A stretch of DNA of 64,000 bases from Candidatus Bathyarchaeia archaeon (GTDB lineage Archaea > Thermoproteota > Bathyarchaeia > Bathyarchaeales > Bathycorpusculaceae), in NCBI GenBank assembly GCA_049521795.1, contig JBEKOM010000003.1:128001-192000 (forward strand), written 5' to 3'. The first letter of the stretch is position 1; every line of letters starts with the position of its first letter. The translations under genes and the position numbers were made by a program. A model generated the notes under the pieces. It made no database searches and had not been told where the DNA came from. It saw only the letters and a list, made by a program, of their open reading frames with translations. Positions 30,638 through 60,480 of the stretch are shown here, piece by piece.

Positions 30638-30664
30638 ACCAGTGCAACAACACCTAAGAACTTC

Positions 30665-41607: not shown

Positions 41608-41687
41608 AATAAGTGAATTGATTACCCGGCTATAAATATCCTTGGCTCAAGGATGTAACGTGTCTGTATGAGCAAAGCTCTTATAGA

Positions 41688-41730
41688 AGACGTGAGATAA
41701 GATACGTGATACAAGAGACGTGATACGTGA
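41688..41730 (+). promoter_or_regulatory. Four clustered ACGTGA direct repeats between a TATA-like box and the start codon
   Basis: agacgtgagataagatacgtgatacaagagacgtgatacgtga. Confidence 0.55.
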
Positions 41731-41733
41731 ACT

Positions 41734-43753: not shown

Positions 43754-43884
43754 TGGCAAGATTGTCTAAAGAGTTCGTTGAAAAGATAGCACTTGAGAAA
43801 ACCACTACACAAAATCTCCAAGACCAAGTCGAACGAGAATTGAAAGGACTGGTAGAAGAGATTGCCACGAGGTTTGCCAAATGA
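43753..43884 (+). CDS. 43-aa helical microprotein (not in ORF track)
   Basis: MARLSKEFVEKIALEKTTTQNLQDQVERELKGLVEEIATRFAK; TAATG and ATGA overlaps. Confidence 0.7.
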   Translation: MARLSKEFVEKIALEKTTTQNLQDQVERELKGLVEEIATRFAK

Positions 43885-45845
43885 AGGCCACACTTAGACT
43901 GAAGAATATTGGGGGCCTGAAGGAAGGAGACTACATGTTCAGATCAGACAAGCTGAACATTATCGAATCTGCCAATTCTTCTGGAAAGACTTCAATCGTC
44001 AAAGCCCTAGCTGGAATATTATCAATACCTAAGAATGGTGCCCTTTCAGAGTCTATGTTTGATGAGGCAATTAAACTTGGCATCAAGACAGATCCTCACA
44101 ATCCCTTTGAAGGATTTGTGAATGTGCATGCAAGTCAAGGTCAGGCAGAGCTCGAACTTGATGGCACTAGGGAAAAGTACGTTGTTAAACAAAACGGAGA
44201 TGTTATTGCAGCTCCCGAACATGGTGATGAGAGATTTCTGTTGGCTGGAGTCTTGTGCAACAACTCTCGAGTACTCAGACAATTGAGAGGACTCGATCAG
44301 AGAGAGCCAGATGACTTCAGATGGGCAGTTGAAGAACTGTCTTTTGCTCGGAAGTATTCCGACGTGGCAGAGGTTCTGAAGACTTGGAAAGAAGACTTCA
44401 CTGAAAAAGAAGAGTTGATCAAGAAGAGCATTCAGGAAATGAAACCTCTTAATGAACGCCATTCCGCCCTTCAAAAAGAGATAGAGAAACTTGATTCAAG
44501 AGTCAACAAACTAACAACTGAGCTTGCAGACACTCGTGTGGAGATCGAGAGCATAGTGAAGGATAGGGAAGAATCACTGAGAGAGATCAACCGTCTGAAA
44601 AAGGAAATGCAGGATAGAGAAGTCTTGAAGACAAGAATCACAGTAACAGAGCTTGCACCAAAGCAACGTGAGTTGGAAAAGGCAAAGGCTGTCAAGAAGG
44701 AGAATGAATCAAAACTTCAGAAAACTCGTGAGGAGATTGAGGCGTTAGAGAACAAAGGAAGTAGAAAACAAGAGATTGAAATTGAAGTAAACAAGCTTAT
44801 GGATCAACGCAATACGTTGGACGGAATTCTTAATCTCTACATTGTTGCGGAAACTAGCTTACGGGAAAAAAGGGGTGACAAGGTGCCTTGTCCGCTTTGC
44901 GAGGTCGGGTACGTAACATATCGTGGAATAACACAGCACATCACGGAATGTCGCGGCCAACGCGAATCGCTGAACTCAAGAATCTTACAGCTCAACCAAG
45001 AGAAGCAGAATATTTCAATTCAATTGACAAAGGCTCAGGAACGTGCCCAGGAATTGCGCAGCAGAATCAGAGAGCAGAGTGATCGAATAGGTTTCATCGA
45101 GAAAGACCTCAAGAAACCTGAAGATGCTGTCAGACAGATTGACAGCGTCATCGCAGACTACAAGAGGAAATTGGAAAGTGAACAAAAGAGCTTCGGCGAG
45201 CTTGACAAGGAAGTGAGTTCCCATACAGGCAAGACGGCAAATGAGGAATTCAATGAATTGAACAAGACTCGTTCCCGAATGCATGAGGAATCGGGTCGCA
45301 TTCTTGAAAGATTAAGCGAGCTTTCAGTTTTTCCAATTATGGAAACGGTCTTCGATACAAAAGTGGCAGCGCTCGTGGCCAAAGATGTTGTCGAGATACT
45401 CAAAGATAGAATCAGTCACCTTGAACAAAGGGCTGAAGAGGAAAGGGAACAGGCTGCAAGAAGATTCAATGAGAGCATCAACATTCTGTTAGCGAACCTT
45501 GGCTTCAAGGAATTCAGAACAATGAAACTCGCAGGTTCGCCAAGTTATAGACTCTATGTAGAACGGTTTGACTCTCAGAAGAAGGACTACAAGAGCCAAG
45601 ATGTTGGAACTCTTAGCACTTCAGAGAAGCTGGCAATCTCATTGATACTGCAGATGGCTCTGAAGGAGACATACATGAGAAACACGCCTTTCCTCATAGT
45701 TGATGATGTGCTAGAGGATTTTGACCCTGAAAGACGAGAGCTAGTTGTTGAATATTTGAAAGACAAGATCTCCAAGGAAAACTGGTTCATAGTAGCAACG
45801 AAACTGGTGGAAAAACGTGGCCCTCCCACAGTCAAATATCTCTAG
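43881..45845 (+). CDS. Archaea-specific SMC-related ATPase (ClsN/Sph-like) with Zn hook
   Basis: LKNIGGL, Walker A ANSSGKTS, long coiled coil with central CPLC, signature LSTSE, Walker B LIVDD. Confidence 0.85.
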   Translation: MKATLRLKNIGGLKEGDYMFRSDKLNIIESANSSGKTSIVKALAGILSIPKNGALSESMFDEAIKLGIKTDPHNPFEGFVNVHASQGQAELELDGTREKYVVKQNGDVIAAPEHGDERFLLAGVLCNNSRVLRQLRGLDQREPDDFRWAVEELSFARKYSDVAEVLKTWKEDFTEKEELIKKSIQEMKPLNERHSALQKEIEKLDSRVNKLTTELADTRVEIESIVKDREESLREINRLKKEMQDREVLKTRITVTELAPKQRELEKAKAVKKENESKLQKTREEIEALENKGSRKQEIEIEVNKLMDQRNTLDGILNLYIVAETSLREKRGDKVPCPLCEVGYVTYRGITQHITECRGQRESLNSRILQLNQEKQNISIQLTKAQERAQELRSRIREQSDRIGFIEKDLKKPEDAVRQIDSVIADYKRKLESEQKSFGELDKEVSSHTGKTANEEFNELNKTRSRMHEESGRILERLSELSVFPIMETVFDTKVAALVAKDVVEILKDRISHLEQRAEEEREQAARRFNESINILLANLGFKEFRTMKLAGSPSYRLYVERFDSQKKDYKSQDVGTLSTSEKLAISLILQMALKETYMRNTPFLIVDDVLEDFDPERRELVVEYLKDKISKENWFIVATKLVEKRGPPTVKYL

Positions 45846-46704
45846 AACCTCAAATGCAGGTTATCCCCAGGCGGGCGCAGGACCGCACGATAAGTGGAAA
45901 CGCCAGCTATATGCTGGAAAGTGTAAGCTCTGCGGCAACAAATCGTACGGAGAACACTGCAAGCTGTGTGAATATACTCTCCTGCAAATGGATGAAATAA
46001 TCAAGCTGTATTTGGAAGGGGCTCCACCTGAGGACTTGGACAACGCAGTTGTAGAGTTCGATAGGATCTACTTTAGCAATCTGAGAATAAGGACGTTCTA
46101 TAATACGGCTTGCGAAGCGATCCGCTTTGTTATCGTGAATCCCAATTCGCCGCTCATACTGATGGAACCAAATTTCTCAAATATCCCAGAGCCCAAGATT
46201 CTGGCAATTCTGGAAGAAAGCAAAATAATCACAAAAAAAGAAGAGAATATATATGCCGGACCGTTGCTCGAGAAGCTTATCAGGTTAAGACTCACTAAGT
46301 ACGGAATCAGCTCCCCGGAGTTCGCAAAACAGCTCAGAATCATATATGCTGTTCTTACACTTGTAGTAACCAAGACATTGCTCAAACATGAAGAGTACAT
46401 TCCGCAGATCGTCGTTGGAGTTTTCCGCGTTATTTCCGCTCATGTCGCCCGGAATTTCGATTCTGCGATGATTCCAAAGGAAATCACACGTTCGACATGG
46501 GAGGCAGGTCTGAGAGGTATGAACCCGAGAGAAGAGGTCCATCTAGAATGGGATCTACTTGGACTGACTGCAAACACCAACCCCCGCATATTCGACGACT
46601 ATGATGCAGAGCTAGAGCAATTCATCTCAAAGCCTTGCATGCTCAACTACTATGAGTATGTCCGAAACATCATCAGGGAGAGACAACTTGAGAGGGACCG
46701 CTAA
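45817..46704 (+). CDS. Hypothetical protein: Zn ribbon and probable winged-helix domains
   Basis: CKLC...CKLC; ILAILEESKII...IYAG; C-terminus resembles that of 41734-42594. Confidence 0.75.
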   Translation: MALPQSNISRTSNAGYPQAGAGPHDKWKRQLYAGKCKLCGNKSYGEHCKLCEYTLLQMDEIIKLYLEGAPPEDLDNAVVEFDRIYFSNLRIRTFYNTACEAIRFVIVNPNSPLILMEPNFSNIPEPKILAILEESKIITKKEENIYAGPLLEKLIRLRLTKYGISSPEFAKQLRIIYAVLTLVVTKTLLKHEEYIPQIVVGVFRVISAHVARNFDSAMIPKEITRSTWEAGLRGMNPREEVHLEWDLLGLTANTNPRIFDDYDAELEQFISKPCMLNYYEYVRNIIRERQLERDR

Positions 46705-46838
46705 AGAGCGAGACTACGCGCGCACACACACAAGATGAAGTTAATTGTTTGGAGCCTTGCAGTTAGAGCAATTTGTGAGTCGTTTGGAACAAAACAGTTC
46801 CACAATACGCACGCGCTGGTTGGCTGACTGAAAAGGAC

Positions 46839-47456
46839 TCATGAATGAATGATGCGGCTGGCCACATCTGTGACGCCGTTTATCAAGAACTGTACAGCGA
46901 TTGCCAAGACGATGATGGCCATTATCCGTGTGACCACATGCAAGCCTTCAGTGCCTAACCGGCCGGCAAGTCGGCCCGCGTAAGTCATCCCCACGTACGA
47001 AAGCAACACGCTCACAAGAACTGCCACAAACACGAAAGGCCACTCAAGCAGGTCGTTGGTCTGAGACATGAGCAACATCACCGTCGTGATCGAACCGGGT
47101 CCCGCAGTCAAAGGAAACGCCAGGGGTACGATCGCAACGTCCTCCAACTCCTCTCGCGTGTACTCATCCTTCCTGGGATGCAGCATCCTCATAGCGACAT
47201 CAACCAACAGAATCCCGCCTGCGATCTGAAAAGCTGAAATAGTAATGTTGAAGACTGAAAACACAAGCTGCCCCGCCAGGGCAAAAAAAGCCAACACCAC
47301 AAAAGAAATCTTCATGGCCTTGCCCACGATTCGCCGTTTCTCTTCAGTACTCTAGCCCTCGGTCAAACTGAGATAGATCGCAATGTTGCTGCCAGGCTCA
47401 ACAACTGCGACCACAGATGTTACGGCGAGCAAAGCAAAACCTATAACCTCAAGCAC
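46839..47456 (-). pseudogene. marC: MarC family membrane protein with an in-frame TAG
   Basis: EPGSNIAIYLSLTEG*STEEKRRI; AIVPLAFPLTAGPGSIT; TAG at 47352-47354. Confidence 0.8.
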
Positions 47457-47941
47457 CCAGACCACGTCAGATAATCTCCATACTAAAAATTTTAAGCTTT
47501 CCTCACTCGCGCGCTAACCAGACAGACGGCTCGCCACTATGAACTTTGTTCCCACTTTACAGACCCAAGATATGAGAGCGCGCGCTACACACCTGTCTGC
47601 TTCTTCAAGACCTGTTACCACACAACATTACCACTGACGTTACTTCTGAACAAAAGGGGGTCAACCTCGAAATAATCCGACCTCACGAAGTCTAGCGAGC
47701 GCTATGTTTTGTGCTGGCGCAGATTCGGTTGACAGTTCTGGTTGGAGAACAAAAGCGGCGCGCTGCCTTGTCCCATTATTATGCGTGCGCACTTGAACAG
47801 CCACGTGGCCCCGCATCCAACCTGAACAGCCTCACCGTTTTCAACGATGCTTGCCAACTGGATATGCAAAGTGTATTTGCAAAACGTATATGCTCACAAT
47901 TACGCACTATTCACAAATTTAGGGACAAGCCAACGCGCTGG

Positions 47942-48436
47942 TTAGGGTTGCATTGTTCGGCGGGGCATGATTCGTTGTTGTTGCGTTGTCGTGTCAGGAA
48001 ACCTGGAGTAGTGTTCGTGGACCACTTTCCATGTTGAATCTTGTTTGTTGAGGACGGATGTGACGCGTGAAGTCACGTCGAACGTCCTGTTTCTCATCAC
48101 TGCCTGATAATGTATGATGAACGTGGCGATCGCTGTGTTGCCGAGAATGTTCGCTTGAAAATCCCTCAACTCGTAACTGTAGCTGGACATCACCTTGAAC
48201 GCTCCGAACTCGTTCTCCAAGGCTTTCGAGCCTTCCTGCCTCTCAAAGGGCGGCCAGTCGTCAAACTTGTTGTAGTGCTCATCAACGAGAGCTTTCACCG
48301 CACCCTCATCCCTGTTCTTCATAGCGTCAAACCGACTAACTATAACACTTCTGACTTCATCCTGCGCGGATGATCCGACTGCAGTCTGTGCCATTTTGAC
48401 ACTCTCACCATAAGGCGCTTGTTCTTCTCTCTTCAA
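47942..48436 (-). CDS. SnoaL/NTF2-like protein
   Basis: RVTSVL...WKVVHEHYS. Confidence 0.85.
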   Translation of the reverse strand: MKREEQAPYGESVKMAQTAVGSSAQDEVRSVIVSRFDAMKNRDEGAVKALVDEHYNKFDDWPPFERQEGSKALENEFGAFKVMSSYSYELRDFQANILGNTAIATFIIHYQAVMRNRTFDVTSRVTSVLNKQDSTWKVVHEHYSRFPDTTTQQQRIMPRRTMQP

Positions 48437-48745
48437 AACGCGCTGGTATCTTATGTTCCTTTCTCAAACTGGTTCTGTGAAGTCTTCGGTTGATATGGGG
48501 TTCATGTGAAAATTCGGTTGATGAATCAGAATATGTTGTAGAAACTGGAACCCTAAGAGTTTATTAAAATGAAATATGCTTGAGCGCGCGCGAGGTCGCA
48601 AGAAATTGGGTCCGCCCCCTTTTGGGTTCGATTCCGTAGAGGCCTGAGCCCCTTAGGGTTCTAGTCCGACCGGAATTTTGCGCATTCTCCTCCGAACCCT
48701 TAATAGATAATAGATCTGCAGAATGGATATCATTCTTATTTCTCG

Positions 48746-48822
48746 GCTCTGAACCAGTTGGCCTAAGACAAAGAGAATGCTGATTACAGAATATTTGAAG
48801 TAGCGGACTCGAACCCGTTTGG
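48746..48822 (+). repeat. 77-bp direct repeat, copy 1
   Basis: 69/77 identical to 55083-55159 by manual alignment. Confidence 0.85.
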
Positions 48823-48950
48823 GTCTAAGTCCGCTAGAAGCCTGAACGCGTTCAGGTGCTGGTCCGGGCAGTATGCTGTATGTGAGGTTTTCAGGTTTTG
48901 AAAATGTTCATGGAGTGTTGATACAGTTCGTCAGGCTCTTCCTCGCGCGC

Positions 48951-49056
48951 TTCGTTCCTTTGATTGGGCTAGCATCAGTTGTGTATCAAAGTAAGGCTCT
49001 CAGCACATATGGTCGCCGTTGGAAACCAGCCGCCTTTATTGCGTCTCGAATCGCTT
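48951..49056 (-). pseudogene. Frameshifted fragment of a probable archaeal tyrosine integrase
   Basis: EAIRDAIKAAGFQRRPYVLRA(+1)YFDTQLMLAQSK. Confidence 0.6.
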
Positions 49057-49099
49057 CGCGCGCGCTAATCGCCTGGGTTAAGAGATTAGTGTGTTGGTG

Positions 49100-49609
49100 C
49101 TAGTGAAAGAATTTCTTAAGTACAAACTTGAGATTGTAGTTGTAATATTCCTGTTTGCCAATGTAAGTGACATTTGTCGCTCTGTTCTTTATCTGTTCTT
49201 TCTTGAGGCCATACGCTTTGATGCATTTTCCAATATCCTCAAGATCTCTATCATCAAGTCTTCCAATTTTCGTTACGACAATGTCAACTGGGTGGAGAGC
49301 TCTCAATGATATGCGTTCCAGATTGGCTATTTCTGTACTATTGGCTAAATAGTCATCTGGAAGGTTCTGACTGAAGATGCACCCATCCAGAAATATATCA
49401 ATCTTATGACCGTGCGGTACATTTTTCTCGGCCCTCTTGTACTCAGGAAAGTCACTGCTAGGAATTGTGAAGTCGATGTCTATTGTTGATGGTTTTAGAT
49501 CAAGTAGTGTCATTGCTGTTCCACCAACGGCTATGAGAGTGATTTTTCTGCCAAGCTCCTTATTCAACTCTTCTAGAAAGTTGAGTAATTCGCTCTTATC
49601 AAGTGGCAT
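49100..49609 (-). CDS. DUF6036/AbiEii-like nucleotidyltransferase
   Basis: AVGGTAM...STIDIDF...VVTKIGR...DLEDI. Confidence 0.8.
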   Translation of the reverse strand: MPLDKSELLNFLEELNKELGRKITLIAVGGTAMTLLDLKPSTIDIDFTIPSSDFPEYKRAEKNVPHGHKIDIFLDGCIFSQNLPDDYLANSTEIANLERISLRALHPVDIVVTKIGRLDDRDLEDIGKCIKAYGLKKEQIKNRATNVTYIGKQEYYNYNLKFVLKKFFH

Positions 49610-50651
49610 TGTATAATCTCATTTTCTGCAGAATGCTTTGCTCATCGGTCGGTGTTTCTTCCAAATTGAAGATCTTCAGAATATCTAGTGTCTCACCTGT
49701 TTCACTCGACGATTTTATCTTTTGCAGGATTCTCAACAAACCTAAGAGTTTTCCAGTTGTTCCGAATTTCTGACTTAAGAATGCCAACAGGTTGCTTCTA
49801 AAACTGTTTTTTGCCAGAACTATTGGTACAGCTTCCAGTCGCCTCGGATCGTCTAGAAGTAATAGGGCCGTGATTAAGTATTCGATGCAAAATTTCTTGC
49901 CTTGTTCTATCTTGAGCCCAAATTCTTTGTATCCAAATCTGCCAAGATTGTAGACGATATCCAAATCTGAGATGCTAGCTGGTTTTGTTTCTGTCTTAAT
50001 AAATTTGATTTCGGTCTTTTCTGCAACTTCTCTGATTTCACTCCAGAACGCTTGAGGACAGAAAAAGACGGTCTTTCTGAATAGGGCTTCTCTGAGGGGA
50101 TTGATCTCATCCGACCTTATCAGATCAGAAAAATCATCTTCATCTAGGATAAGACTGTCAACTCTCAAGTTATACTTGTTCTGCAGTTTCAACATTTCGC
50201 TGTAAAGCCTAACAGTCTCATTATGATAATCAGATGTTTTCCTTAAGAGAAAGAGCAACTCAACCCTGTTGAGTTTGATGTTTTTTACGAGATTTATGGA
50301 ACTAATCGATTTTATTGCGCACGTTTCATTCAGAGACTTGTCCATTTCTGTTAAGAATATCAGCAAGTCATTTCTATTCTTTAAGAGTTCCATCTTTTTC
50401 TCCATTTCCATCTCCGACAGGAGATCGATCAATAAGTAATTCTGAAAGTTTAGTTTAATAATGGAAGATCTTCCCAGGTTGTCGAGAGTAAGCACATTTT
50501 CTTTCTTTAGTTTCTGCAATTTTTGGTAGATGTTCGCATAATATGCACTGCCATATGTATCTTTGATTCTCTCAGTAAGCTGATTAATCGACAAACTTTC
50601 ACCTAAATTAGATGATACCGTATCTAAGATTCGAAGCGTGGGTGTATCCAT
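49599..50651 (-). CDS. wHTH-containing putative antitoxin/regulator
   Basis: SINQL...YANIYQKLQKL wHTH; overlaps the NTase start. Confidence 0.65.
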   Translation of the reverse strand: MDTPTLRILDTVSSNLGESLSINQLTERIKDTYGSAYYANIYQKLQKLKKENVLTLDNLGRSSIIKLNFQNYLLIDLLSEMEMEKKMELLKNRNDLLIFLTEMDKSLNETCAIKSISSINLVKNIKLNRVELLFLLRKTSDYHNETVRLYSEMLKLQNKYNLRVDSLILDEDDFSDLIRSDEINPLREALFRKTVFFCPQAFWSEIREVAEKTEIKFIKTETKPASISDLDIVYNLGRFGYKEFGLKIEQGKKFCIEYLITALLLLDDPRRLEAVPIVLAKNSFRSNLLAFLSQKFGTTGKLLGLLRILQKIKSSSETGETLDILKIFNLEETPTDEQSILQKMRLYNAT

Positions 50652-51137
50652 TTTGTATTTTTCTCCTAAGTCATCATTATAGCCAATTGACTATATACTA
50701 ACTAACTATAACATTATAGTAAACAAACTATAAAAAGACTACTGCCAACCACTCGACATTCCAACAATTCGAGAATCAGACTTTTCTGAACATTCTCGAC
50801 AAGAAAAAGCAAATTCTCCTTACATCCAACCGAATTGAAAATCGGAAGCGCGCGCGCTGCAAGGAGTTCCCATGTCAATCACATTATGACCAAAAAGACG
50901 GAGTTTACTCCAGACAATCTCTGAATAATTGGAAAGACTTGATGAGTAGAGGCTTTACTCCATTCCAGTAGCATGGCTCAGCCTTTACACATGATATGGT
51001 TGTTGGATAAGCTTTACCACCAAACCCACACAAAAAGGGGAGAAGAGGGGAGGCATCGAACGCGCGTTTTATCCCTGCGTGTCTTCGACAAACATAAGTC
51101 CTAGTTCTTTCTACTGTGGTATCTTGCGTGCGCTTGA

Positions 51138-51479
51138 ATGACTGTTCAGATTGAGGTCTACGTGAGAAAAAAGAGGCAGATAGTCCGGCAGTACGTTACT
51201 CCTCCTGTGTCGGATGGCATCCAACACCATGCTTGCATGTCTAAGCAAGTAACAGAATTCGAGGAAGTCCTTCCTGACGCCGACAACCAAGCGTTGAGAA
51301 TTGTGGATCAACTGGCGACTGAATTCGCGGTGCCCTTCAAGGTCTACAACATTGCAACCTTTGCGGGAAAACTAAAAGCAAAATCAAAAGGCATCACGAA
51401 GACTCCGACCGTAATCCTGAACGGAGAAAAGATAGAGAGCATCAGTGTCGAGGTTCTCAGAAGCAAAATACATATCTAG
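51138..51479 (+). CDS. Hypothetical protein with partial thioredoxin-like fold
   Basis: GITKTPTVILNGEK. Confidence 0.6.
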   Translation: MTVQIEVYVRKKRQIVRQYVTPPVSDGIQHHACMSKQVTEFEEVLPDADNQALRIVDQLATEFAVPFKVYNIATFAGKLKAKSKGITKTPTVILNGEKIESISVEVLRSKIHI

Positions 51480-51671
51480 CATGTGTCAGAACATAGCCAC
51501 AACTTTGAAAGGTCGTTAACGCTAGCTCCCTGTCTGGATCATCAAAACTTCGACAATGCATTCACATTGTCGTTGTGGGCACCAGTTTGGTTGGGTGGAT
51601 AAAACTTTGCCCCACGCACAAAAATTCTGGAAATGTCGAATGCCTCTGCAAGCAAAGTTGCCTCTTTGGCG

Positions 51672-52163
51672 TTATGAGAGAAATTTGCTGTAGATTATCA
51701 TGTCCAATCCTCTTGTGTGTTTTCTCAAGAAGCCTTCGGGCAAGAATCCATTGTTGACGTACAGCCTTATTGCTGGCACGAGGTGTGGTGATGTGTGCAG
51801 CCAGATCTTGTGGGCTTTTCTTTTCCTTCCCTCTTTGATGAACCTGTTCAGAAGTCTTGACCCAACACCTCTGCCTCGGCACTCCTTTGTTACCGCCAGA
51901 AATCCGAGACTGCACACTCCCGCTGCTTCTCGGCCCAAAGCCATACCTACAATCTGACGGTTTTCCACAGCAACTAAAAGAATCTCGCTCTTGTTTTCTA
52001 TTCTCTCCCTGAGCTTCTTGATGTACTCAGGTTCATGCATGCTCTTGATTTCAGGGTCAACGAAAGAAGCAGGCAACCACTCACGAAGACTCTCAAAGGT
52101 TCTAATCAGACAATTGTCCAGGTTTTCGCAATCCTCAACAACAGCAAAACGAACCTTGAACAT
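51672..52163 (-). CDS. GNAT acetyltransferase
   Basis: LAV...RGRGVGSRLL, AIRLY..NGF. Confidence 0.9.
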   Translation of the reverse strand: MFKVRFAVVEDCENLDNCLIRTFESLREWLPASFVDPEIKSMHEPEYIKKLRERIENKSEILLVAVENRQIVGMALGREAAGVCSLGFLAVTKECRGRGVGSRLLNRFIKEGRKRKAHKIWLHTSPHLVPAIRLYVNNGFLPEGFLRKHTRGLDMIIYSKFLS

Positions 52164-52315
52164 TTTTCCTCATCAACATCTTCAGAATCGTTTCGTTGTG
52201 TTTTAAGAATTTTCCTACTGACGTTCACCTTTGAGTTTGGGATAAAACTTTGCCCGTGCGCGTGTGCGCGCTATAACACCTTGCCTTTAAGCTTCGGACG
52301 GAATTTCTAACGCGC

Positions 52316-52497
52316 CTATTTTCTTCTCAGAAGCACCATGTTCAAGCTGTTCGGAGATTTGGCTTTCTCAAGAGGCTTGTCGAGGTACCACGTACTTTCA
52401 TTTCCCTGCCACCATCCCAGAAACTCAAATCTGCCGTTGAGTTCCACCAAGGCCTTGAACTCTTGGGGAAAAATGAACTTCAAATTCTCGCTGCTCT
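52316..52497 (-). pseudogene. 3' fragment of a probable methyltransferase gene
   Basis: NLKFIFPQEFKALVELNGRFEFLGWW...MVLLRRK*; begins at the (GC)n site 52498-52506. Confidence 0.45.
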
Positions 52498-52612
52498 CGC
52501 GCGCGCTCAAGTGTAAAGAAAACATGTAGATCTGTCTGCTCACAGCAAAGTCTTTAATTGTGTATGCGACCAAGAGCGTCGGTCGTTGCCGAACTGGGAG
52601 AGGCGCAAGGGA

Positions 52613-53461
52613 TTGATTAAGCGAGTTAGTATCGTTTTTGCGAATTATTGTCCACACTGTGTACCGTTTTCTCTGCGTAATGCTAACAAAATGTCCGAAG
52701 ACCTTGGGGTTCCGCTTCTTACTCTTGACATAGAGATCCCTGAGCAGCTTGAGGCAGCTGACAGGCTCGTCGAAGAACATGGCGATTGGTCGGAGGATTA
52801 TCTTATCCCTCAAGTCTTTGTTGAACACATGGACGGGAGAGTTAATCACGTATTAACTGGTTTTTCAGAGGCAGTTTCGGTGACAGAAGGTTCTTGGAAA
52901 GCGCTGTTTTCGAGTAGTTACTATCAAAGCCTCGTACATGAACAACCGGCTATCTCGTATCCTCACTCATCATCACATCGTAAGTCGTTGAAGGAGTTTG
53001 TAGAGGCATACCTAACGTTCGATGGACAATGTTACAGGCACTGCGATAGCCCTTCCTCCTTCGTAGATCTGCGATCCGACTCGGATAATGTCATCGGAGC
53101 ATACGTCTGCCCCGGCGGATACGTGTCCAGGGTCGTCTACTTCAGTGTTCACCCAGATATCAAGCAATTCAAAAGCTTTCTTAACTCCCAAGTCGGTAAG
53201 GAAATTGTTACCGATCGCGATATCCGTCCAGCCACTAGGCACGGGTGGGAATTGGAAAGCGATGCCATGGCTGAGATTGGCGAGGTGAGCCCCACCGGTG
53301 TCATAAAGGAGATTTATTGGACAGTCTATGCCAAAACCGAAGACGAAAGAAGACGGGGAGTTTTTGTCTGCTCACATCCTGGGAAAGGAAGGGGATGCAA
53401 CAGACTATTCGTTCAAGACAGGAAGTCAAGAAACAGATTGTGCCCAAAGTGTAAACAGTGA
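52613..53461 (+). CDS. Thioredoxin/glutaredoxin-like CPHC domain plus Cys-rich domains
   Basis: YCPHC, IPQVF, C-terminal C...C...CPKC. Confidence 0.7.
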   Translation: MIKRVSIVFANYCPHCVPFSLRNANKMSEDLGVPLLTLDIEIPEQLEAADRLVEEHGDWSEDYLIPQVFVEHMDGRVNHVLTGFSEAVSVTEGSWKALFSSSYYQSLVHEQPAISYPHSSSHRKSLKEFVEAYLTFDGQCYRHCDSPSSFVDLRSDSDNVIGAYVCPGGYVSRVVYFSVHPDIKQFKSFLNSQVGKEIVTDRDIRPATRHGWELESDAMAEIGEVSPTGVIKEIYWTVYAKTEDERRRGVFVCSHPGKGRGCNRLFVQDRKSRNRLCPKCKQ

Positions 53462-53644
53462 ACCTTAGCGCGCGCTATAAAGGCGTGAATTTCGCGGCAT
53501 CCAGCAACGTGCTGAGCGCGCGCGCACGAACCGCAAGTCTTCCAGCAGAGCGTTAAGGCGCGATTGAGCCCAAACCAAATCGCATGCAATGAAACGAAGA
53601 ACTGATAGGGTAGAAACAAGAAGTGTCAACGTTAGGGAAAGGTC

Positions 53645-55042
53645 ATGAAGATAAAGTTCTTGGGCGCAACGCGTCAAGTGACGGGGTCAAGCTACTTTCT
53701 GGACGCTGGCGGAGTGAAGATCCTTGTCGATTGCGGCCTGTTTCAGGAAAGAGACTATTCCCACAGAAACTGGGAGGCCTTCCCCGTTCCTCCAGACCAG
53801 ATCCAACATCTCCTCCTAACCCACGTTCACCTAGACCACTCGGGGCTTATTCCCAAACTTGTCAAGGATGGGTTTAACGGAGACATCCTGCTCACCCCCG
53901 CATCCAAACTGTTGTTTCCGATAGTCATTCTGGATTCTGCCCGAATGCAAGAAGAAGATGCCGCCTACAAGAAAAGACGCCACGAAAAGGAAGGCCGAAA
54001 GGGACCCTACTCCGAAATCCCTCTGTACACAGTCCAAGATGCCCAGAAGTGCTTTCCCCTCCTGAAGGATGTTCCCTACGAAGAATTTCTCTCCCTGAAC
54101 GACAGAGTCAAAGTTTGCTTCCACGATGCCGGCCACATTCTCGGCTCCGCCATGATCGAGATCACTGTCCAAGAACAGAACGAACCGCGGAACATCATCT
54201 TCTCCGGGGATGTCGGCCAGTGGGACAACCCTCTTCTTGCTAACCCCTCCGTCTTTGACCATGCAGATTACGTGGTCATGGAGTCCACCTACGGAGACCG
54301 CAACCATGACAACCCCCAAGACATCGATGACAAACTCGGCAAGATCGTCAACGACACCATAAAGTCCGGCGGAAACGTCCTCATCCCGACCTTCGTCATC
54401 GAACGCGCCCAAGACCTGCTGTACCACTTCAGCCGCTTAGCGCGTGCCAAAAGAATCCCTTACGTCCCGATCTTCCTCGACAGCCCAATGGCCGTCGAAG
54501 TCACAAAGGTCTTCGAACAATGCAAAAAGTATCTTGACAAAGAGACACTGGACCTCTTCAAAGATGGCCAATTCCCCTTCGACTTTCCAGGATTGAAACT
54601 CGTAGACTCCATTGAGGCATCCAAAGCCATCAACCAGATCAAAGAGTCAGCCATCATAATGGCCGGTTCGGGGATGATCACAGGAGGACGAATCAAACAT
54701 CACCTAGTCAGGGAGATAACTCGCTCAGAATCTACGCTCCTCTTTGTAGGATACCAAGCGGCTGGGACGCTGGGACGGCAAATCCTGGACGGGGACTCTC
54801 CCGTCAGAATCCTCGGACAATCCTACCCAGTTAAGATGAAGATCGAGAAGATCGACGGCTTCTCCGCCCACGCCGGCATGAACGACCTGCAACGCTGGCT
54901 CAGCAACTTCAAATCCCCGCCCAAGCATGTTTTCCTAACACACGGCGAAGAAACATCGATTCTGAGCCTAGAAAACTATCTCCAATCCAAGGGTGGATGG
55001 CAAGTAAGTGCACCAATATACATGGAAGAATACAACCTCTAA
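53645..55042 (+). CDS. MBL-fold beta-CASP ribonuclease
   Basis: VDCGLFQ, THVHLDHSG, AGHILGS, FSGD, MESTYG, FSAHA, HGE. Confidence 0.92.
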   Translation: MKIKFLGATRQVTGSSYFLDAGGVKILVDCGLFQERDYSHRNWEAFPVPPDQIQHLLLTHVHLDHSGLIPKLVKDGFNGDILLTPASKLLFPIVILDSARMQEEDAAYKKRRHEKEGRKGPYSEIPLYTVQDAQKCFPLLKDVPYEEFLSLNDRVKVCFHDAGHILGSAMIEITVQEQNEPRNIIFSGDVGQWDNPLLANPSVFDHADYVVMESTYGDRNHDNPQDIDDKLGKIVNDTIKSGGNVLIPTFVIERAQDLLYHFSRLARAKRIPYVPIFLDSPMAVEVTKVFEQCKKYLDKETLDLFKDGQFPFDFPGLKLVDSIEASKAINQIKESAIIMAGSGMITGGRIKHHLVREITRSESTLLFVGYQAAGTLGRQILDGDSPVRILGQSYPVKMKIEKIDGFSAHAGMNDLQRWLSNFKSPPKHVFLTHGEETSILSLENYLQSKGGWQVSAPIYMEEYNL

Positions 55043-55082
55043 CCTCTCCAAAAGACTGCATCCCCTAGTCTATGCGCGCGCA

Positions 55083-55159
55083 GCTCTGAACCAGTTGGCC
55101 TAGGACAAAGAGAATGCTGGTTGCAGGATGTTTGAAGCAGTGGACTCGAACCCATTTGG
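55083..55159 (+). repeat. 77-bp direct repeat, copy 2, bracketed by (GC)n sites
   Basis: (GC)n at 55074-55081 and 55159-55168. Confidence 0.85.
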
Positions 55160-55226
55160 CGCGCGCGCCTCAAAACCAAAAACTGGCTTAGAAGAACTGA
55201 TAGAAGTGTTTTCTATTCTACATGAC

Positions 55227-55985
55227 TCAGATATCAACTTGTTTTCGGACAAAGTCTACCATTTTCTCTGCCCAACGCTCCAGATACTCTTCTCCTTGAC
55301 CAGCTTTAGCTTTGCGAGGATCACCAAGCACACCATTCTTCGAGACGGCTTTGATGCCTTGACTATACATTAGACCCATCAACTTATCATCGAAACTTCC
55401 CACAAAACCTGTTTCAGCATTCTTCATGTCAACCAGATCTTTGCGTATCGCTAAAACCATTGACGTTTCGGATTCACCTGCATGAGCCCCTGACTCACCA
55501 GCCGTAATTCCATATTTAGATGAAAACTCGGTAAGGAATCCAAGAAGACCTTTCAGATCCGCGTAAGATACGACCTTAGTTCCTTCAAGACTTTGGTTGA
55601 GCTCATCGGTCACCTCTCGCACAGCATTGAAATTTCCGCCATGAGATGGAAGTATAACGATGTTCTTGAATCCCTGCTTTGCCAAACTAGCACAGTAGTC
55701 GCGGATCAAACTTTTCAGCGTTTCCGGTCTAAGACTGATGGCTCCGGGGAACACCATGTGAGCATCGGAGCATCCTACATTTATAGAAGGCGCTTGAAGA
55801 GCCCTACCAAGTTTCAAAGTCACTTTATTGGCCAAAACATCACCTTCCAACGTGTCCGTACAGGTAGGCAGATGAGGCCCATGCTGTTCATTTGAGCCCA
55901 CAGCGAATACAACCGTGCTAAAACCTCTGTCCAGGGCTTTCTGGATATCAAGCCGAGTCATCTCGGACATGCGAACCTTAACCAT
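55227..55985 (-). CDS. Creatininase family amidohydrolase (MftE-like)
   Basis: GSNEQHGPHLP..TD, SHGGN, HAGESETS, NGVLGDP. Confidence 0.9.
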   Translation of the reverse strand: MVKVRMSEMTRLDIQKALDRGFSTVVFAVGSNEQHGPHLPTCTDTLEGDVLANKVTLKLGRALQAPSINVGCSDAHMVFPGAISLRPETLKSLIRDYCASLAKQGFKNIVILPSHGGNFNAVREVTDELNQSLEGTKVVSYADLKGLLGFLTEFSSKYGITAGESGAHAGESETSMVLAIRKDLVDMKNAETGFVGSFDDKLMGLMYSQGIKAVSKNGVLGDPRKAKAGQGEEYLERWAEKMVDFVRKQVDI

Positions 55986-56224
55986 TTGTGTTTCCTCGTC
56001 TTGTTGATCTAACGTGCCATACTCAAGCGACTTAGTGTTCACAATTTTGTTTCGGTTCGGTTATATCTTTTCCGCAAAAGTAAAAAATGGTTGGTTAGAC
56101 CAAAGTCTTATCCCAGTATGAAAATCGAAGGAATTTAGTAGTTCCTTCATTCGATATGGTAATGTGGTTACGATGGTGCAAAAGACACTTCTCGAAGAAG
56201 AGAAAATCGAACGAACTACCCGTC

Positions 56225-56516
56225 GCGCGCGCTTTTTTTTGTTTTTGTTTTTTTGTTTGTGTCAAGGTGTAGAAAGTAAGAGAGATAATTAATAGTAATA
56301 AGAGAAGAAAGGAAGAAGAAGAAAAAGGGTAAAGTTTTATCCAACCAAACCAAGATTCAATGGCTTCAGCATGATTCTGGGAAGACAGGATGAGTCAGGC
56401 GTATACCAGATTCAGGATATACATGGAGCTCTCATGGCATGGAAAAGAAGGCTAGTACCAAAAATCAAGTCATAATAGGGTTAAGATATAGGTATAGTCG
56501 GAATCGAGTATACGCC
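56225..56516 (+). repeat. Non-coding element: (GC)4, low-complexity linker, 17-bp motif, conserved boxes
   Basis: GCGCGCGC at 56225; AGGGTAAAGTTTTATCC at 56326; 19-mer at 56498 shared with 38284. Confidence 0.7.
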
Positions 56517-56620
56517 TGCTCTAAATGATATCACTAAACGAGCGCCCATTGGTTAAAAATGGGACAAAACTCCTATATGTTAGGTATTAGCTTGAACTTC
56601 TTAGGATGTGGTGAGAGAGC

Positions 56621-56848
56621 ATGGAACTCCATTGTCTGAAATGTGGTCATCTACTACCAAAAGATGAGAGCGCAAAATCCTTGTTCCCGTTTGAAGTTTA
56701 CCGCTGTCGGAATTGCGGGGACGGTTTGCTTTTTGATATGGCTACAAAAGAAGCTTTTCTGATTCCTAAAAGTCTAGGACTTTTCGAGATGACACTTGAA
56801 AAAATCAAAAAAGCAATCAACAAAATTCCGTACGATGAAGATTATTAA
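56621..56848 (+). CDS. Small Zn-ribbon protein
   Basis: CLKCG...CRNCG; GGTGAG upstream. Confidence 0.7.
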   Translation: MELHCLKCGHLLPKDESAKSLFPFEVYRCRNCGDGLLFDMATKEAFLIPKSLGLFEMTLEKIKKAINKIPYDEDY

Positions 56849-56956
56849 ATTTCTAGCAAGCCTTTGGCAATTAAATACAAACCAAGGCCCCTTACCAAAT
56901 GCGCGCGCGCAAGTGCTTGAAGCATAGTCCAAACATTTAATCTTTCTACGATCATA

Positions 56957-57093
56957 GCGCGCGCTTGCTGTGCCGATTTAAGATTTCTGTCTGTCTTTTT
57001 TGTCTGTCTGGGAGAGAGAGTAAGTGAGTGGTTGAGTAGTAGAAGGGTTTGGGTTTGGGGTTAAAATTTAATCCAACCAACCAACCAACCAAC
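56957..57093 (+). repeat. (GC)4, low-complexity linker, 17-bp motif, (CCAA)n
   Basis: GGGTTAAAATTTAATCC at 57058. Confidence 0.7.
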
Positions 57094-57096
57094 ATT

Positions 57097-57750
57097 CTAA
57101 ACCTGCAATTCCTCGTCTTCTTTCAGTGCCACAACCCTTGTTTTTGAGTTGGTTTCCACCTTCTCTTTGAAGTCATCAATGTCTTTTCCCTGATTGTGCA
57201 TCGGTATCACGATTTTGGGTTTTATTGCTAGAGAAGCCTCGGCGGCATCGACATTGTCCATAGTGTACGTATCCCCAGTGGGAAGCAACGCAACGTCCAC
57301 CTTTCCAAGTTGCTTCATCTCAGGGACAAAATCCGTATCTCCAGCATGATAGATAGTCTTTCCTTCAGCTGTTATCAGATACCCGACACCGAGACCCTTT
57401 GGGTGCCAAGGATTTCCAGGAGACTTGAAACGCTTAAGGTTGTAGGCTTCAACAGCCGTCACGGCTATGTCTCCGATGATTGCCTGTTCTCCAGGTTTGA
57501 GTTTTCTGACAGCGCCGCCGATTTTCTTGACGCAGGAAAGGAAGAGAGGAAAAGGAGCAATTATCACGGTGTCAACTTTGTGAGCTTTGTTGATTTTCAA
57601 TGTGTCACAATGGTCAAAATGTGCATGCGTAACCAGAATCAAATCTGCTTTCTGATTGTATTCACCTTTGTAGGGGTCTATGTAAATCGTTTTCCCTTTA
57701 GTCTTGATTCGAAAACTAGCATGCCCCAGCCACTTTATAACCACGGTCAT
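57097..57750 (-). CDS. MBL-fold metallohydrolase (UlaG-like)
   Basis: WLGHASF, IDP, THAHFDH, YHAGDT, IPMH. Confidence 0.9.
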   Translation of the reverse strand: MTVVIKWLGHASFRIKTKGKTIYIDPYKGEYNQKADLILVTHAHFDHCDTLKINKAHKVDTVIIAPFPLFLSCVKKIGGAVRKLKPGEQAIIGDIAVTAVEAYNLKRFKSPGNPWHPKGLGVGYLITAEGKTIYHAGDTDFVPEMKQLGKVDVALLPTGDTYTMDNVDAAEASLAIKPKIVIPMHNQGKDIDDFKEKVETNSKTRVVALKEDEELQV

Positions 57751-57807
57751 TCTGACATCGCCTTTCTCGTCCAATCATCGCCGCTTTTCTAATCATTATG
57801 GTGGTTT

Positions 57808-58143
57808 GGATAAAACTTTACCCCAACCAACCAACACGGACGACGGACGACGACGACCACGACGGACGACGGAGACGTGAGACGACGACGAAGGATGGAA
57901 GGAAGGATGGAACAAAAGTGCTTTTCAACGTTAAGAAATGTATGTCTTAAGCTCTTCGTAAGACGTACATTAGCGCGCGCGCGCTAAAAATGTCAATATA
58001 AATAATTTAGCAACAAACTGGCGCGCGCACCGTTTCCGTCTTCCGTCGTGGTTTTCCGTCGTGGTCGTCCGTCGTTCGTGGTCTTTTAGGAAATCCGTCC
58101 GTCGTCCGTGGTTTGGTTGGTTGGTTGGGTTAAAATTTAATCC
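57808..58143. repeat. Two inverted copies of the 17-bp motif/(CCAA)n/(GACG)n element around a (GC)6 core
   Basis: Motifs at 57808-57824 (-) and 58127-58143 (+); (GC)n at 57973 and 58021. Confidence 0.75.
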
Positions 58144-58249
58144 CGACACATACCTAGCATTTTCGGGCTTCTGCTCAATTACTCGCTAACAATTACTGAT
58201 CGTACATACAAAAAATAATATAAATGCTATTTCAACTATTTTGTAAATT

Positions 58250-59197
58250 ATGAAAATAGCTGTCGTCGGGATTGGAGGTGAAGGCGGCTTCTTCGGAGCG
58301 GTTCTCGCAAATGCTGGAAACGATGTGACCCTAATCGCTAGGGGGCAAACCCTGGATGCCCTGAGGACTAATGGCCTATTCGTCAAATCCAACTCACTCG
58401 GAGACATCAAACTATCTGTGAAAGCAACTGATAGGCCCGCCGAAGTTGACCCCGTTGACCTAATCATGTTCTGCGTGAAGACCTACGACCTTGACTCCGC
58501 CGCGCAGCAGATGTCACCACTTATCAGTGAAGGAACCGTCATAATCCCAGTTCAGAACGGAGTAGAGGCCGCTGACCGCATAGGGAATATAGTCGGATTA
58601 GAGCATGTCCTCGGAGGAGTCTCCTGGGTGAACGCCAGAGTTGAGAAACCAGGCGTGATCATACACGGAGGTTCGACGAGGCTAATATTCGGGGAACTCG
58701 CAGGAGGTGTGACGAGGCGCACAGAAGAGATCTCTAAGGTTCTCAAAGAAGCCAATATCGCCGCCGAACTTCACCCAGATATCCGCCACGCGTTGTGGGA
58801 GAAGCTTGTCTCCAACTCAGCATTCAACGGGGTCTTTTCATTGATTAGGCTCCCAGCAGGGCCTGTCCGAGATTGCCCTGATTCTATGCAGTTGCTACGC
58901 GACACGATGAAGGAGAACGTCATGGTGGCAAAGGCGTGTGGAGTCGCAATACCTGAAAGATTTGTCGATGATAGTATGAAGATGTTAGAGGGGTACGCGA
59001 GTTGGGCTAGGCCGTCTATGCAGGTCGACCTCATGGCGGGTCATCGGCTGGAACTTGACGCTATGATCGGCACCATTGTTCGATTGGGTCGAGAGAAGGG
59101 GGTGGAGACCCCTATCAATTCCACAATTTACAGGGCGCTCCTACCTCATTTAAACGGGGCACCCCCAAATCCGACTCCTCCTGAAGATCGAATGTAA
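58250..59197 (+). CDS. panE: 2-dehydropantoate 2-reductase family protein
   Basis: GIGGEGG, CVKTYD, QNG, WEKL..N, SMQVD...LELD. Confidence 0.88.
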   Translation: MKIAVVGIGGEGGFFGAVLANAGNDVTLIARGQTLDALRTNGLFVKSNSLGDIKLSVKATDRPAEVDPVDLIMFCVKTYDLDSAAQQMSPLISEGTVIIPVQNGVEAADRIGNIVGLEHVLGGVSWVNARVEKPGVIIHGGSTRLIFGELAGGVTRRTEEISKVLKEANIAAELHPDIRHALWEKLVSNSAFNGVFSLIRLPAGPVRDCPDSMQLLRDTMKENVMVAKACGVAIPERFVDDSMKMLEGYASWARPSMQVDLMAGHRLELDAMIGTIVRLGREKGVETPINSTIYRALLPHLNGAPPNPTPPEDRM

Positions 59198-59305
59198 CGC
59201 CGATTTATGCGGTCTGTATGTACGTAGCGCGCGCTATTACCAGACTTGACATAAAGAGTCGCAGTTATTTGGAATTAAAAAAAGAAGAAGGTTTTGGGTT
59301 TGAGG

Positions 59306-59620
59306 CTATTTGGCTTTTAGCATTTTCATGGCTTCTTCCATGCCCGTCGCCAATTTGACTTCGGCTGTTTCGTACTTGCCTAGTGCCAGAGCTTCTGGTT
59401 CCATATTGGCTTTTTGGAAAGCTTCTAGACTTGGGGCTTCGATTATAAAGACGCTCAGATGTTCTGAAATGACACCTCCACCCCAAAGCATCTTCATTTT
59501 GTATTTCTTCGATATTTTGTCCATGTTGCTAAACCAGTCCACGTAGGTCTTTCTTGTTTTTTCATTGAACAGCGGGCAGTTTTCGGGCGCATGCCTTGTA
59601 ATCATCAAGAATGTAGGCAT
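59306..59620 (-). CDS. Hypothetical protein
   Basis: MPTFLMITRHAPENCP...EH...IIEAPS; GGAG upstream. Confidence 0.65.
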   Translation of the reverse strand: MPTFLMITRHAPENCPLFNEKTRKTYVDWFSNMDKISKKYKMKMLWGGGVISEHLSVFIIEAPSLEAFQKANMEPEALALGKYETAEVKLATGMEEAMKMLKAK

Positions 59621-59729
59621 ATCAAAACGCTCCAAATTATCATTTCTACAAACTATATAAAAGACTTTGCTTTTTTCAAAAAAAGTCTCAGCTTTATGGA
59701 ATTTTACTTAAATGAAAAATAATCCCTTT

Positions 59730-59884
59730 TTGCCTGTCTGTGTGTTTGTCTGTTTGTGTGTGTCTGTCTGTGTGTGTCTGTCTGTTGGTGTCAGTAGGTA
59801 GTAGTAAGTAGAAGTGGGAAGGAGAGGGAAAGGGAAGAAAGGGGAAGTAGAAGGAAGTTTGTGTGTGTGGGTAAAGTTTTATCC
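59730..59884 (+). repeat. Low-complexity (TGTY)n/(GAAG)n tract ending in the 17-bp motif
   Basis: TGGGTAAAGTTTTATCC at 59868. Confidence 0.75.
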
Positions 59885-60480
59885 CAGACACTAGACCCTT
59901 GACTCAACCATTTTCATGACTTCTAAGTGTCTTGAGTTCTCGAGTTGGACTATCTGCTTAGCGCGCGTCGCCGTTTTGATCGCGCGGTTGCTGGACTTGA
60001 ACCCGTTTGGGTTCGAATCCCCTAGAGGTCAATCCCAGAAACGGTACGAATCCTTATAGTTCTGCTTTTGTTTCGCATGCGCGAAATTAGCGCACGCACT
60101 TCAATTTGTTACACTTGATGGTTCTTTCTACATTCTGCAAAACTTCTCGATATCACAATTTGTTACAGTCCGGTCGTCAAAAGAATTTCGCGGTCAGTAT
60201 GCAAATAGCGGCGCGGCCTTTATGCACGAGCACGCGCGCCTAGGTCTGGAGACAAACTATGCGCGCACTAACGTTGGCTATGATCGTCGGCTTATGTACT
60301 TGCCTGACGAACGCTTGAAGCATCCCAGTGCCCAAGTGCATTCTTGTTGGACAGATAAACAATAAGATTTATTAAGATATAAGATATCTCCCTCACTAAA
60401 CCGTACGGACAAGCCTGACTCTAAACCCGGGAGATCAACACTTGAAAGGCCACGATTCCAGCAGAAGATTCTTCTCAGTA

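Follow-up and report, generated by a model that had tools for sequence, protein, structure and literature searches.

The 64,000-nucleotide (nt) stretch considered here, called the window throughout, lies on contig JBEKOM010000003.1 (C3) of a Bathyarchaeia genome from peat (G000, 98.75% complete), and its right part holds an array of single, unrelated genes separated by short runs of alternating G and C. The genes encode, on both strands, a MarC protein, a SnoaL/DUF4440 protein, a DUF6036 nucleotidyltransferase and its partner, a GNAT protein, a beta-CASP protein, a creatininase, a metallo-beta-lactamase (MBL) protein and PanE, in agreement with the content and mixed orientation given by an earlier reading made from the letters alone (the sequence-only reading). 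The array belongs to a 22-kb variable island at a conserved locus (Table 1). Synteny with two relatives, G001 and G002, ends at window positions 38075 and 37955, respectively, and resumes in G002 at 60321; the left flank is the same in all three genomes, and the content and length of the island differ. In G001, a 61-kb island of different content follows this flank, and the DNA on its far side matches elsewhere on contig C3.

A run is defined as a maximal stretch of alternating G and C, and runs of at least 7 nt were counted in the window. Twenty of them (7–12 nt) lie within 46717–60239 and a single one, at 21793, in the rest of the window, while 3.22 would be expected in 13.55 kb at the genome average (Poisson P(≥20) = 2.8e-10). 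The sequence-only reading had placed about 20 runs in the array, and 20 of its 21 positions are runs of this length, 60261 being a 6-mer; as for the two outliers it had named in the first 46 kb, 21793 is a run and 32454 is an interrupted one, GCGTGCGCGC. It was also right that the runs are essentially intergenic, with none of the 20 inside a Pfam-matched open reading frame (ORF) and four (48944, 49057, 50848 and 52498) touching small or unsupported ORFs. The sequence TAGCGCGCGCTA is read at both 53466 and 59225.

Statistics for the whole genome refer to the 46 main contigs (2.36 Mb). The 23 of 69 contigs with a G+C content of at least 0.53, mostly 2.5–7 kb in length and probably foreign DNA in the bin, were left out; genes for TFIIB, TFE-alpha and Alba on contig C2 identify the organism as an archaeon. 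Genes were taken from a crude greedy ORF picker (at least 80 amino acids, 84% coding), and the coding and intergenic shares are approximate for this reason. Alternating GC words of 8 nt occur 625 times, against 57 expected from dinucleotides, an approximately 11-fold excess. There are 181 runs of 7 nt, 210 of 8 nt, 107 of 9 nt and 56 of 10 nt, followed by 3, 3 and 1 of the next lengths, a distribution that peaks at 8 and stops sharply after 10 without smooth decay. Among the 380 runs of at least 8 nt, 292 (~77%) are intergenic, compared with 15% of 4-nt runs, and 189 are exactly GCGCGCGC. The base just outside is A on the 5' side or T on the 3' side at 69% of run ends, which gives the consensus A-GCGCGCGC-T. 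The left and right flanks are statistically independent, and direct and inverted matches between them are at permutation expectation for k = 1–7, without target duplication. About ten clusters with 5–9 runs per 5 kb are scattered over the genome, several of them at contig ends, and contig C13, a glycosyltransferase/polysaccharide island, contains 50 runs in 43.5 kb.

Chance, microsatellite slippage or an assembly artefact is given next to no credence as the origin of the runs. The low-complexity spacers of the islands and the many islands that touch contig ends would suit such an origin, but the lengths are not geometric and the array exceeds expectation by the probability stated above. Moreover, runs are also seen in the single-contig genome G001 (2.35 Mb) and in contigs of independent sequencing runs, and assembler word sizes far exceed 8–10 nt. 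The suspicion that the runs mark chimeric or assembly junctions is countered by public Logan contigs that cross them without difference (X2 over 49004–50741 and 58620–59728, X3 over 51750–52765). One public contig has an additional CGCGCG directly after the PanE stop (59197), a population variant. Apparent joints at 56348–578xx in public contigs were considered as deletions and rejected, as they are matches between copies of a box repeat described below.

Run density is 1.14 per kb in convergent spacers, 0.82 in tandem and 0.56 in divergent ones. The bias to convergent spacers and 3' gene ends, the T tracts that follow some runs (for example, that at 56224) and the conservation between G000 and G001 of two of the three runs in aligned DNA would all be expected of a cis-acting element that sits where genes end (for instance an aid to termination, an insulator, a binding site or a Z-DNA site), with each seeming breakpoint being the last conserved base before a fast-evolving spacer. 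Such an element is nevertheless improbable as the explanation. Runs are rare in aligned syntenic DNA (3 in 95.5 kb), are more frequent in unalignable gaps (19.3 kb with 5 runs, 28.8 kb with 10) and concentrate in flexible islands, where many form chains with 30–250 nt of unrelated DNA between them. In addition, they stand in for deleted coding DNA inside broken genes, where there is no gene end, and most relatives in the family are without them.

The islands consist of unrelated 30–250-nt pieces and single-gene modules, chained together with runs between them, and the modules of the array sit at other places, in other orders and in other orientations in relatives. The homology of the PanE module between G000 and G001 extends from a TATA-like box (GGGTAAAATTTAATCCC, 58125) to the last base of the run at 59227–59234, and the sequences are unrelated beyond both borders. 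The module of ORF291 has a run before and after it in both G000 and G001, with differences in the few bases between module and run, and the G002 copy and the second G001 copy match out to runs. The backbone is about 86–94% identical in G001 and G002 and 66–76% identical in G009; a recent transfer of the creatininase module between species follows from its 91–92% identity to the G009 copies. Modules with runs or boxes as borders move between contexts and species. The claim that gene and repeat fragments end at runs is borne out by the PanE homology and by a 77-nt repeat at 55083–55159, which stops at the run at 55159 while its copy at 48746 continues.

Table 1. Features of the window (positions within the 64-kb stretch; remarks as observed in G000 and its relatives)
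Feature	Position	Strand	Remarks
Variable island at conserved locus	38100..60320		array is its right part, 46.7–60.3 kb
GC run	46717..46723		7 nt; 13 nt past stop of ORF 45817–46704
GC run	47508..47514		7 nt
GC run	47578..47585		8 nt
GC run	48584..48592		9 nt
GC run	48944..48950		7 nt
GC run	49057..49065		9 nt; 35 nt past 3' end of DUF6036 gene
GC run	50848..50857		10 nt
GC run	52498..52506		9 nt; directly upstream of ORF291 module; 224-nt G008 match (93%) stops within run
GC run	53468..53475		8 nt, TAGCGCGCGCTA; 7 nt past ORF291 stop; G001 has run at same joint, other junction bases
GC run	53516..53525		10 nt
GC run	55074..55081		8 nt; left border of truncated 77-nt repeat
GC run	55159..55168		10 nt; cuts off 77-nt repeat
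GC run	56224..56232		9 nt; followed by C-poor tract and box
GC run	56901..56910		10 nt
GC run	56957..56964		8 nt
GC run	57973..57984		12 nt; longest in window
GC run	58021..58028		8 nt
GC run	59227..59234		8 nt; exact 3' end of PanE module common to G001
GC run	59961..59967		7 nt
GC run	60233..60239		7 nt; close to right edge of island
GC run	21793..21800		8 nt; 91 nt within 3.3-kb stretch swapped for unrelated DNA in G001
SnoaL/DUF4440 module	47934..48467	-	92–93% to island copies in G001 and G002
GNAT module	51598..52255	-	box to box; 95% to G002:C21:28379-29040
ORF291 module	52521..53461	+	no Pfam family; 94–96% to copies in G001 (two) and G002, run-bordered
Creatininase module	55227..56115	-	91–92% to two inverted copies in G009
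PanE module	58125..59234	+	box, leader, gene 58250–59197, run; 94% to G001:2270684-2271807, different context
TATA-like box	58131..58143	+	core TAAARTTTWATCC within GGGTAAAGTTTTATCCC; one of eight
Gene part absent from G001	9112..9745		634 nt; G001 joint GCGCGCT; G002 retains segment
Segment absent from G001	14653..14947		295 nt; G001 joint GCGCGCG; G002 retains segment
Segment absent from G002	29497..31894		2396 nt; G002 joint GTCGCGCGCGCT
Miniature inverted-repeat transposable element (MITE)	47758..47939	+	182 bp; terminal inverted repeats GCGCGYTGSCTTGTCCC; in GC-run-like site

The coincidence of homology breakpoints with runs, expected by the sequence-only reading between related genomes, is found at the ends of high-scoring segment pairs (HSPs), at repeat ends and at indel joints. 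After removal of HSPs shorter than 300 bp or below 78% identity, 7 of the 13 runs of at least 8 nt inside HSPs between G001 (447 kb) and G000 lie 0–2 nt from an HSP edge. An HSP end lies no more than 3 nt from a run in 10 of 180 cases on the G000 side (p = 3.7e-4) and in 19 of 180 on the G001 side (p = 3.4e-11), the figure for random intergenic positions being 1.5%. The same distance applies to 64 of 1084 ends of within-genome repeats (p = 3.8e-20). At C3:119447, two runs have collapsed to one. In family f26, the genomes G099 and G105 are 60–86% identical over 9.5 kb (~75% overall), and 1.12 kb between two runs is 96–99% identical, with the step exactly at the runs. This run-bounded segment appears, from its sequence, to be a complete isopropylmalate-dehydrogenase-like gene lying inside the two halves of a broken paralog.

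Runs also occur where DNA has been lost. Indel events were scored where HSPs of 100 bp lie on both sides, the short side measures at most 40 nt and the difference is at least 40 nt. In the collinear core of contig C3, G001 is without 556, 634 and 295 nt and carries CTCCCAGCGCGCGCG, GCGCGCT and GCGCGCG in their place, and two further G001 deletions, on contig C7, have a run at the joint. Four G001 cases were read over their whole length; part of the lost DNA is coding sequence that extends into the flank, and G000 has a run at neither end. As G002 keeps both window segments, these deletions are derived in G001, and the long form is retained in a third genome in all three checkable cases. In the comparison with G001, a run is the filler at 5 of 9 sites where G001 is short and at 0 of 17 where G000 is short; with 400 kb of G002, the counts are 5 of 11 G002-short sites and 2 of 12 G000-short sites. 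The total is 12 of 49 large indels between three species of the genus, compared with 2.7% of random 64-nt windows (p = 4.7e-9).

At these 12 sites, a run stands in the place of the missing DNA, which is often coding, in some cases together with a few additional bases, and some joints have flank microhomology of 2–3 nt. Templated filler was considered and rejected, as G001 contains no further copy, at up to one mismatch, of either of the two longest fillers. Where three deletions lie side by side in G002, two fragments of ~350 nt separated by runs are all that is left of 7.3 kb; the result resembles the island mosaics and is the island pattern in the making. Several of the 17 G000-short sites are insertion sequences (IS) in G001 with 8–9-bp duplications. 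IS elements of 1.4–1.5 kb were seen at G001:C1:2251983-2253520, 2007252-2008764 and 2116194-2117634, with terminal repeats beginning GRTACTGTTAAGTT or GGTTCCGTTAAC, 8–9-bp target duplications and empty sites in G000. A second, different kind of single-gene insertion is present in G002 (contig C5, locus L024) opposite window position ~9140–9150, where 826 nt with a flavodoxin/flavin mononucleotide (FMN)-reductase-like gene and GTCGAC-like short direct repeats have been inserted without a GC run.

The motif is neither confined to the array, as had been supposed, nor to this genome. All 11 searched genomes of the genus, G000 included, have 29–464 copies of GCGCGCGC, and eight genomes of the family's other genera have 0–14. 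Of the 151 genomes covered across the class, 13 show a strong excess of AGCGCGCGCT over the reversed control, namely G000, G090, G058, all five of family f32 and five of f26, where a sixth genome has 4 versus 0 (six of seven); the motif is found in three further families of the class.

This spread calls to mind HIP1 of cyanobacteria (GCGATCGC), which PMC5861425 and PMC13756078 describe as occurring more than once per gene in some genomes, quasi-periodically. It is quite improbable, though, that the runs are an iterated palindrome of the HIP1 or uptake-sequence type, spread by drive through methylation-linked biased repair or preferential uptake and recombination. Both are 8-bp GC-rich palindromes that differ in the central two bases only, both are in vast excess (92 copies of AGCGCGCGCT versus 1 of the reversed control) with a lineage-specific spread, and both come with hints of a part in gene transfer (PMC5861425, PMC4390886 and PMC13756078 for HIP1). 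A coding site at C11:88631 has two substitutions relative to G001, both towards the palindrome, and exchange tracts stop at runs. However, the runs are mostly intergenic (77%) and clustered in islands, and they arise at indel joints as insertions in place of unrelated DNA rather than through substitution. C5 methylase (PF00145), which was considered as a candidate agent and rejected, has matches in 3 of the 13 motif-rich genomes, one of them weak, and shows no association with the motif. A term search of PMC4390886 returned no mention of GCGCGCGC. DNA uptake sequences are marked by enrichment in the conserved core genome, and the motif is depleted in aligned core DNA.

Another possible source lies within the array itself. 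The MITE (Table 1) has ~20 copies in the genome and is missing from this site in G001 and one X5 contig; its ends read GCGCG...CGCGC, often with A and T outside, and its terminal repeat belongs to a 1.1-kb IS. The runs might accordingly be footprints or duplicated targets of a GCGC-ended cut-and-paste transposon made up of this MITE and its parent IS, as two joined ends of 4–5 nt would give 8–10 nt and the MITE itself sits in a GC-run-like site. This origin is very unlikely. Over the 151 genomes, the terminal repeats do not follow the motif: 8 of the 13 motif-rich genomes have 0 matches, the repeats are abundant in motif-poor genomes, and G126 has 40 matches with no enrichment of the motif (16 vs 14 in the control). 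Furthermore, no target duplication surrounds the runs, and the ends of other IS elements in the genus are of another kind, with duplications of 8–9 bp. The 5.6-kb stretch between two GCGC-type ends on contig C15 encodes no transposase.

Several modules, among them the PanE, MBL and GNAT units, have the TATA-like box as their 5' border. The other boxes of the window start at 38127, 51596, 52240, 56330, 57062, 57808 and 59872. The box is quasi-palindromic, is present at ~25 genomic sites and is conserved across the genus; some copies have no downstream gene, and one flank carries (GGTTT)n or (GGTT)n, the opposite flank its complement. Tracts of 100–150 nt lead from run to box at 56233–56329, 56965–57060, 57836–57972, 58029–58124 and 59720–59868. 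They use three of the four bases, being C-poor on the strand towards the box (one pair is T-free and A-free), and are TG-rich and then AG-rich, with loose common motifs such as GAAGAGAGTAAG ... GTAGTAGAAGG. Other low-complexity tracts also abound in the spacers of the islands.

Repeats resembling a tRNA T-arm/acceptor half (GGGTTCGAATCC-like) occur at 48600–48850, 55083–55159 and 59993–60026 of the window, and at C2:5800-6300, C2:9577-9716 and C9:3781-3990. They are often cut off at GC runs and may be integration-site remnants or a repeat resembling short interspersed elements (SINEs). ARAGORN called no tRNA in the window, though tRNA-like fragments are visible, and Rfam gave 0 matches in the window at gathering scores and 0 in 46–61 kb at E ≤1. 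The MarC gene (46839–47460), beside the run at 47508, is probably broken or truncated, with a match limited to profile positions 42–201 and an interrupted upstream frame. The left part of the island (38981–46704, G+C 41–44%) encodes a PAPS-reductase-domain protein (DndC-like), an AAA ATPase, a 654-amino-acid SMC/Rad50-like ATPase and unknowns; it has no match in five relatives and is likely a DNA-modification or defence module. The part at 44001–46700 likewise gave no match in the five relatives searched. In G009, positions 1400–4880 of locus L089 (G009:C10:110501-116800) form a 3.5-kb inverted duplication whose arms contain the creatininase, a box and a membrane protein, and whose centre has two GC runs around a small palindrome.

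A search for a responsible enzyme took in recombination and end-joining proteins alike. Integrase PF00589 has 10 matches in the genome and 0 on contig C3, and neither the 81 island proteins scanned nor the scanned window ORFs include a recombinase or transposase. Pairs of the attC type (R''/R') in 46001–60400 number 4, against 2.7 ± 2.5 in shuffled sequences, which is chance level, and no inverted-repeat family is shared by the module borders. The RVT_1 reverse transcriptase, Prim-Pol PF09250 and the Y1 transposase PF01797 have no match in G000. The PolX palm domain was rejected, as it is absent from G000 and present mainly in the motif-poor family f24. At G000:C5:41155-44209 (L050:7155-10209), an operon encodes LigD_Prim-Pol, Ku and a ligase fused to LigD_N (3'-phosphoesterase), followed by DUF72; this is complete end joining of the bacterial type in an archaeon. 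Ku is present in 8 of the 11 genomes of the genus and in 37 of the 151 of the class. Because no enzyme was identified, the "recombination system" of the sequence-only reading remains an inference.

The main rival to the interpretation given below is a dedicated enzyme, either a recombinase or a rare-cutting nuclease with a ligase, that cuts A(GC)4T and rejoins the palindromic ends, the run-to-run segments being mobile cassettes, open to excision, to insertion in both orientations and to exchange between cells, with an integron-like function. A defined 10-bp palindrome with a half share of exact GCGCGCGC among the runs (189 of 380) and A/T flanks would suit such an enzyme, as would the G099/G105 identity step exactly at both runs, for whose precise re-use it accounts at least as well. 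The run-bordered ORF291 in G000 and G001, with other copies matching out to runs, the two runs that became one at C3:119447, the mixed orientation and the patchy but family-consistent spread (f32 5/5, f26 6/7), as for an accessory gene, point in the same direction. We consider it rather unlikely all the same. Scar runs in G001 lie at sites where G000 has none at either end, and the bases at module-run junctions differ between copies. No candidate gene emerged, with contig C3 free of integrases, the island proteins free of recombinases and the C5 methylase not tracking the motif. A site of 10 bp is also short for the known site-specific recombinases.

The interpretation that we favour, with about even confidence, is that the runs are joints, made when DNA was cut and rejoined without long homology and later re-used, and that the array is a fast-changing, flexible island that tolerates and accumulates such events. 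The joining process behind the runs in this peat archaeon would be one not described before. A broken end would gain a short tail, in which some arbitrary bases, often A, are followed by alternating GC. Since (GC)n is self-complementary, any two GC-tailed ends could pair in either orientation, and the paired ends would be ligated at ~8–10 bp of pairing. Joining through GC tails would explain the sharp length limit, the mixed orientation, the independent flanks, and the occurrence of a single run at a deletion but of two around an inserted piece. An old run exposed at a later break would present the same 8–10-bp sticky microhomology, and its re-use would make exchange tracts end at runs. The candidate enzymes would be those of the LigD-PrimPol/Ku/ligase-phosphoesterase (PE) operon of the genus, or a joining through microhomology that is driven by a primase, as in a report on Saccharolobus. 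According to PMC12019639, an archaeal primase carries out terminal transfer and anneals microhomologies.

Several observations weigh against the runs being joints of this kind. No enzyme is tied to the motif. Ku, tried as the agent, was rejected, as it is found in 3 of the 13 motif-rich genomes and in 34 of the 138 others, and G016 has the Pol-Ku-ligase operon yet only 7 copies of GCGCGCGC. We know of no end-joining polymerase that synthesizes alternating GC de novo at breaks. The f26 identity step implies precise re-cutting or re-use, for which a dedicated run-specific enzyme is simpler. Runs are biased to 3' gene ends (distances of at most 10 nt number 34 of 312 for 3' ends and 6 of 256 for 5' ends), and of the three runs that lie in aligned core DNA, two are conserved in both G000 and G001, so a function is possible. 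Among the large indels, 37 of 49 have no run, including every one of the G000-short sites in the comparison with G001, and polarity is established for 3 of the 12 scars only.

End joining with filler DNA, either by the Ku-LigD nonhomologous end joining of bacteria and some few archaea or by microhomology joining, that of the archaeal primase included, is alike in the few inserted bases, the 2–3-nt microhomology in some joints, the lack of target duplication and the presence of the LigD-PrimPol/Ku/ligase-PE operon in the genus. It is unlike in that the filler here is defined, (GC)4-5 with A/T outside, and does not co-occur with Ku across the class. We know of no case of filler with a defined sequence at end-joining junctions. 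Repetitive extragenic palindromic (REP) sequences and bacterial interspersed mosaic elements (BIMEs), with their REP-associated tyrosine transposases (RAYTs), are also intergenic palindromes in the hundreds, often near 3' gene ends and often paired. REPs are known rearrangement sites with hairpin-forming units of 20–40 nt and a GTAG head, whereas the runs measure 8–10 nt, do not fold alone and have independent flanks, and G000 has no match to the Y1 transposase. In the literature, searched at the level of abstracts, no description of the motif was found for Bathyarchaeia, integrons and gene cassettes, archaeal intergenic DNA, genomic islands or deletion-junction filler.

The comparison with integrons bears most directly on the original proposal, in which (GC)n was the footprint of a recombination system that accretes cassettes. 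Breakpoints at runs, moving modules, a variable hot spot and two modules (the creatininase module and the f26 gene) that are far more similar between genomes than the backbone uphold part of it. The runs, however, are also found outside islands in place of deleted parts of ordinary genes, and are thus joints generally and not cassette borders alone; moreover, several 5' borders are the TATA-like box. The likeness to integrons is one of behaviour: single unrelated genes are arrayed at a conserved locus, close relatives differ in its content, the same units recur in other arrays, and each unit has a short palindromic element at its 3' border. Membership is a different matter. The contig of the array has no integrase, attC-type pairs are at chance level, and the border measures 8–10 bp, compared with 55–140 bp for attC. 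The units are on both strands, several with their own promoter-like box, while integron cassettes are mostly promoterless and co-oriented downstream of a shared promoter, and the same element here marks plain deletions in ordinary genes. It is possible, although doubtful, that A(GC)4T is the joint of an undescribed, enzyme-driven cut-and-join system in at least four Bathyarchaeia families, which would delete DNA and move promoter-bearing cassettes between species as an integron analogue without attC or integrase. Such a system might be likened to a natural form of cloning by restriction and ligation, with a palindrome of 10 bp as the linker.

If the runs are joints, each of them would be a dated record of one break-and-join event, and the sequence alone would reveal gene loss, gain and shuffling in a group of archaea that is uncultured and abundant worldwide. 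The runs would then also point to a chemistry of repair or recombination whose product is defined in sequence, which would be new for prokaryotes, and they would provide a concrete way in which flexible islands, including glycosylation, defence and small-enzyme cassettes, arise in archaea without classical integrons. In metagenome bins of these lineages, the motif is a cheap marker by which variable islands and recent transfers can be located.

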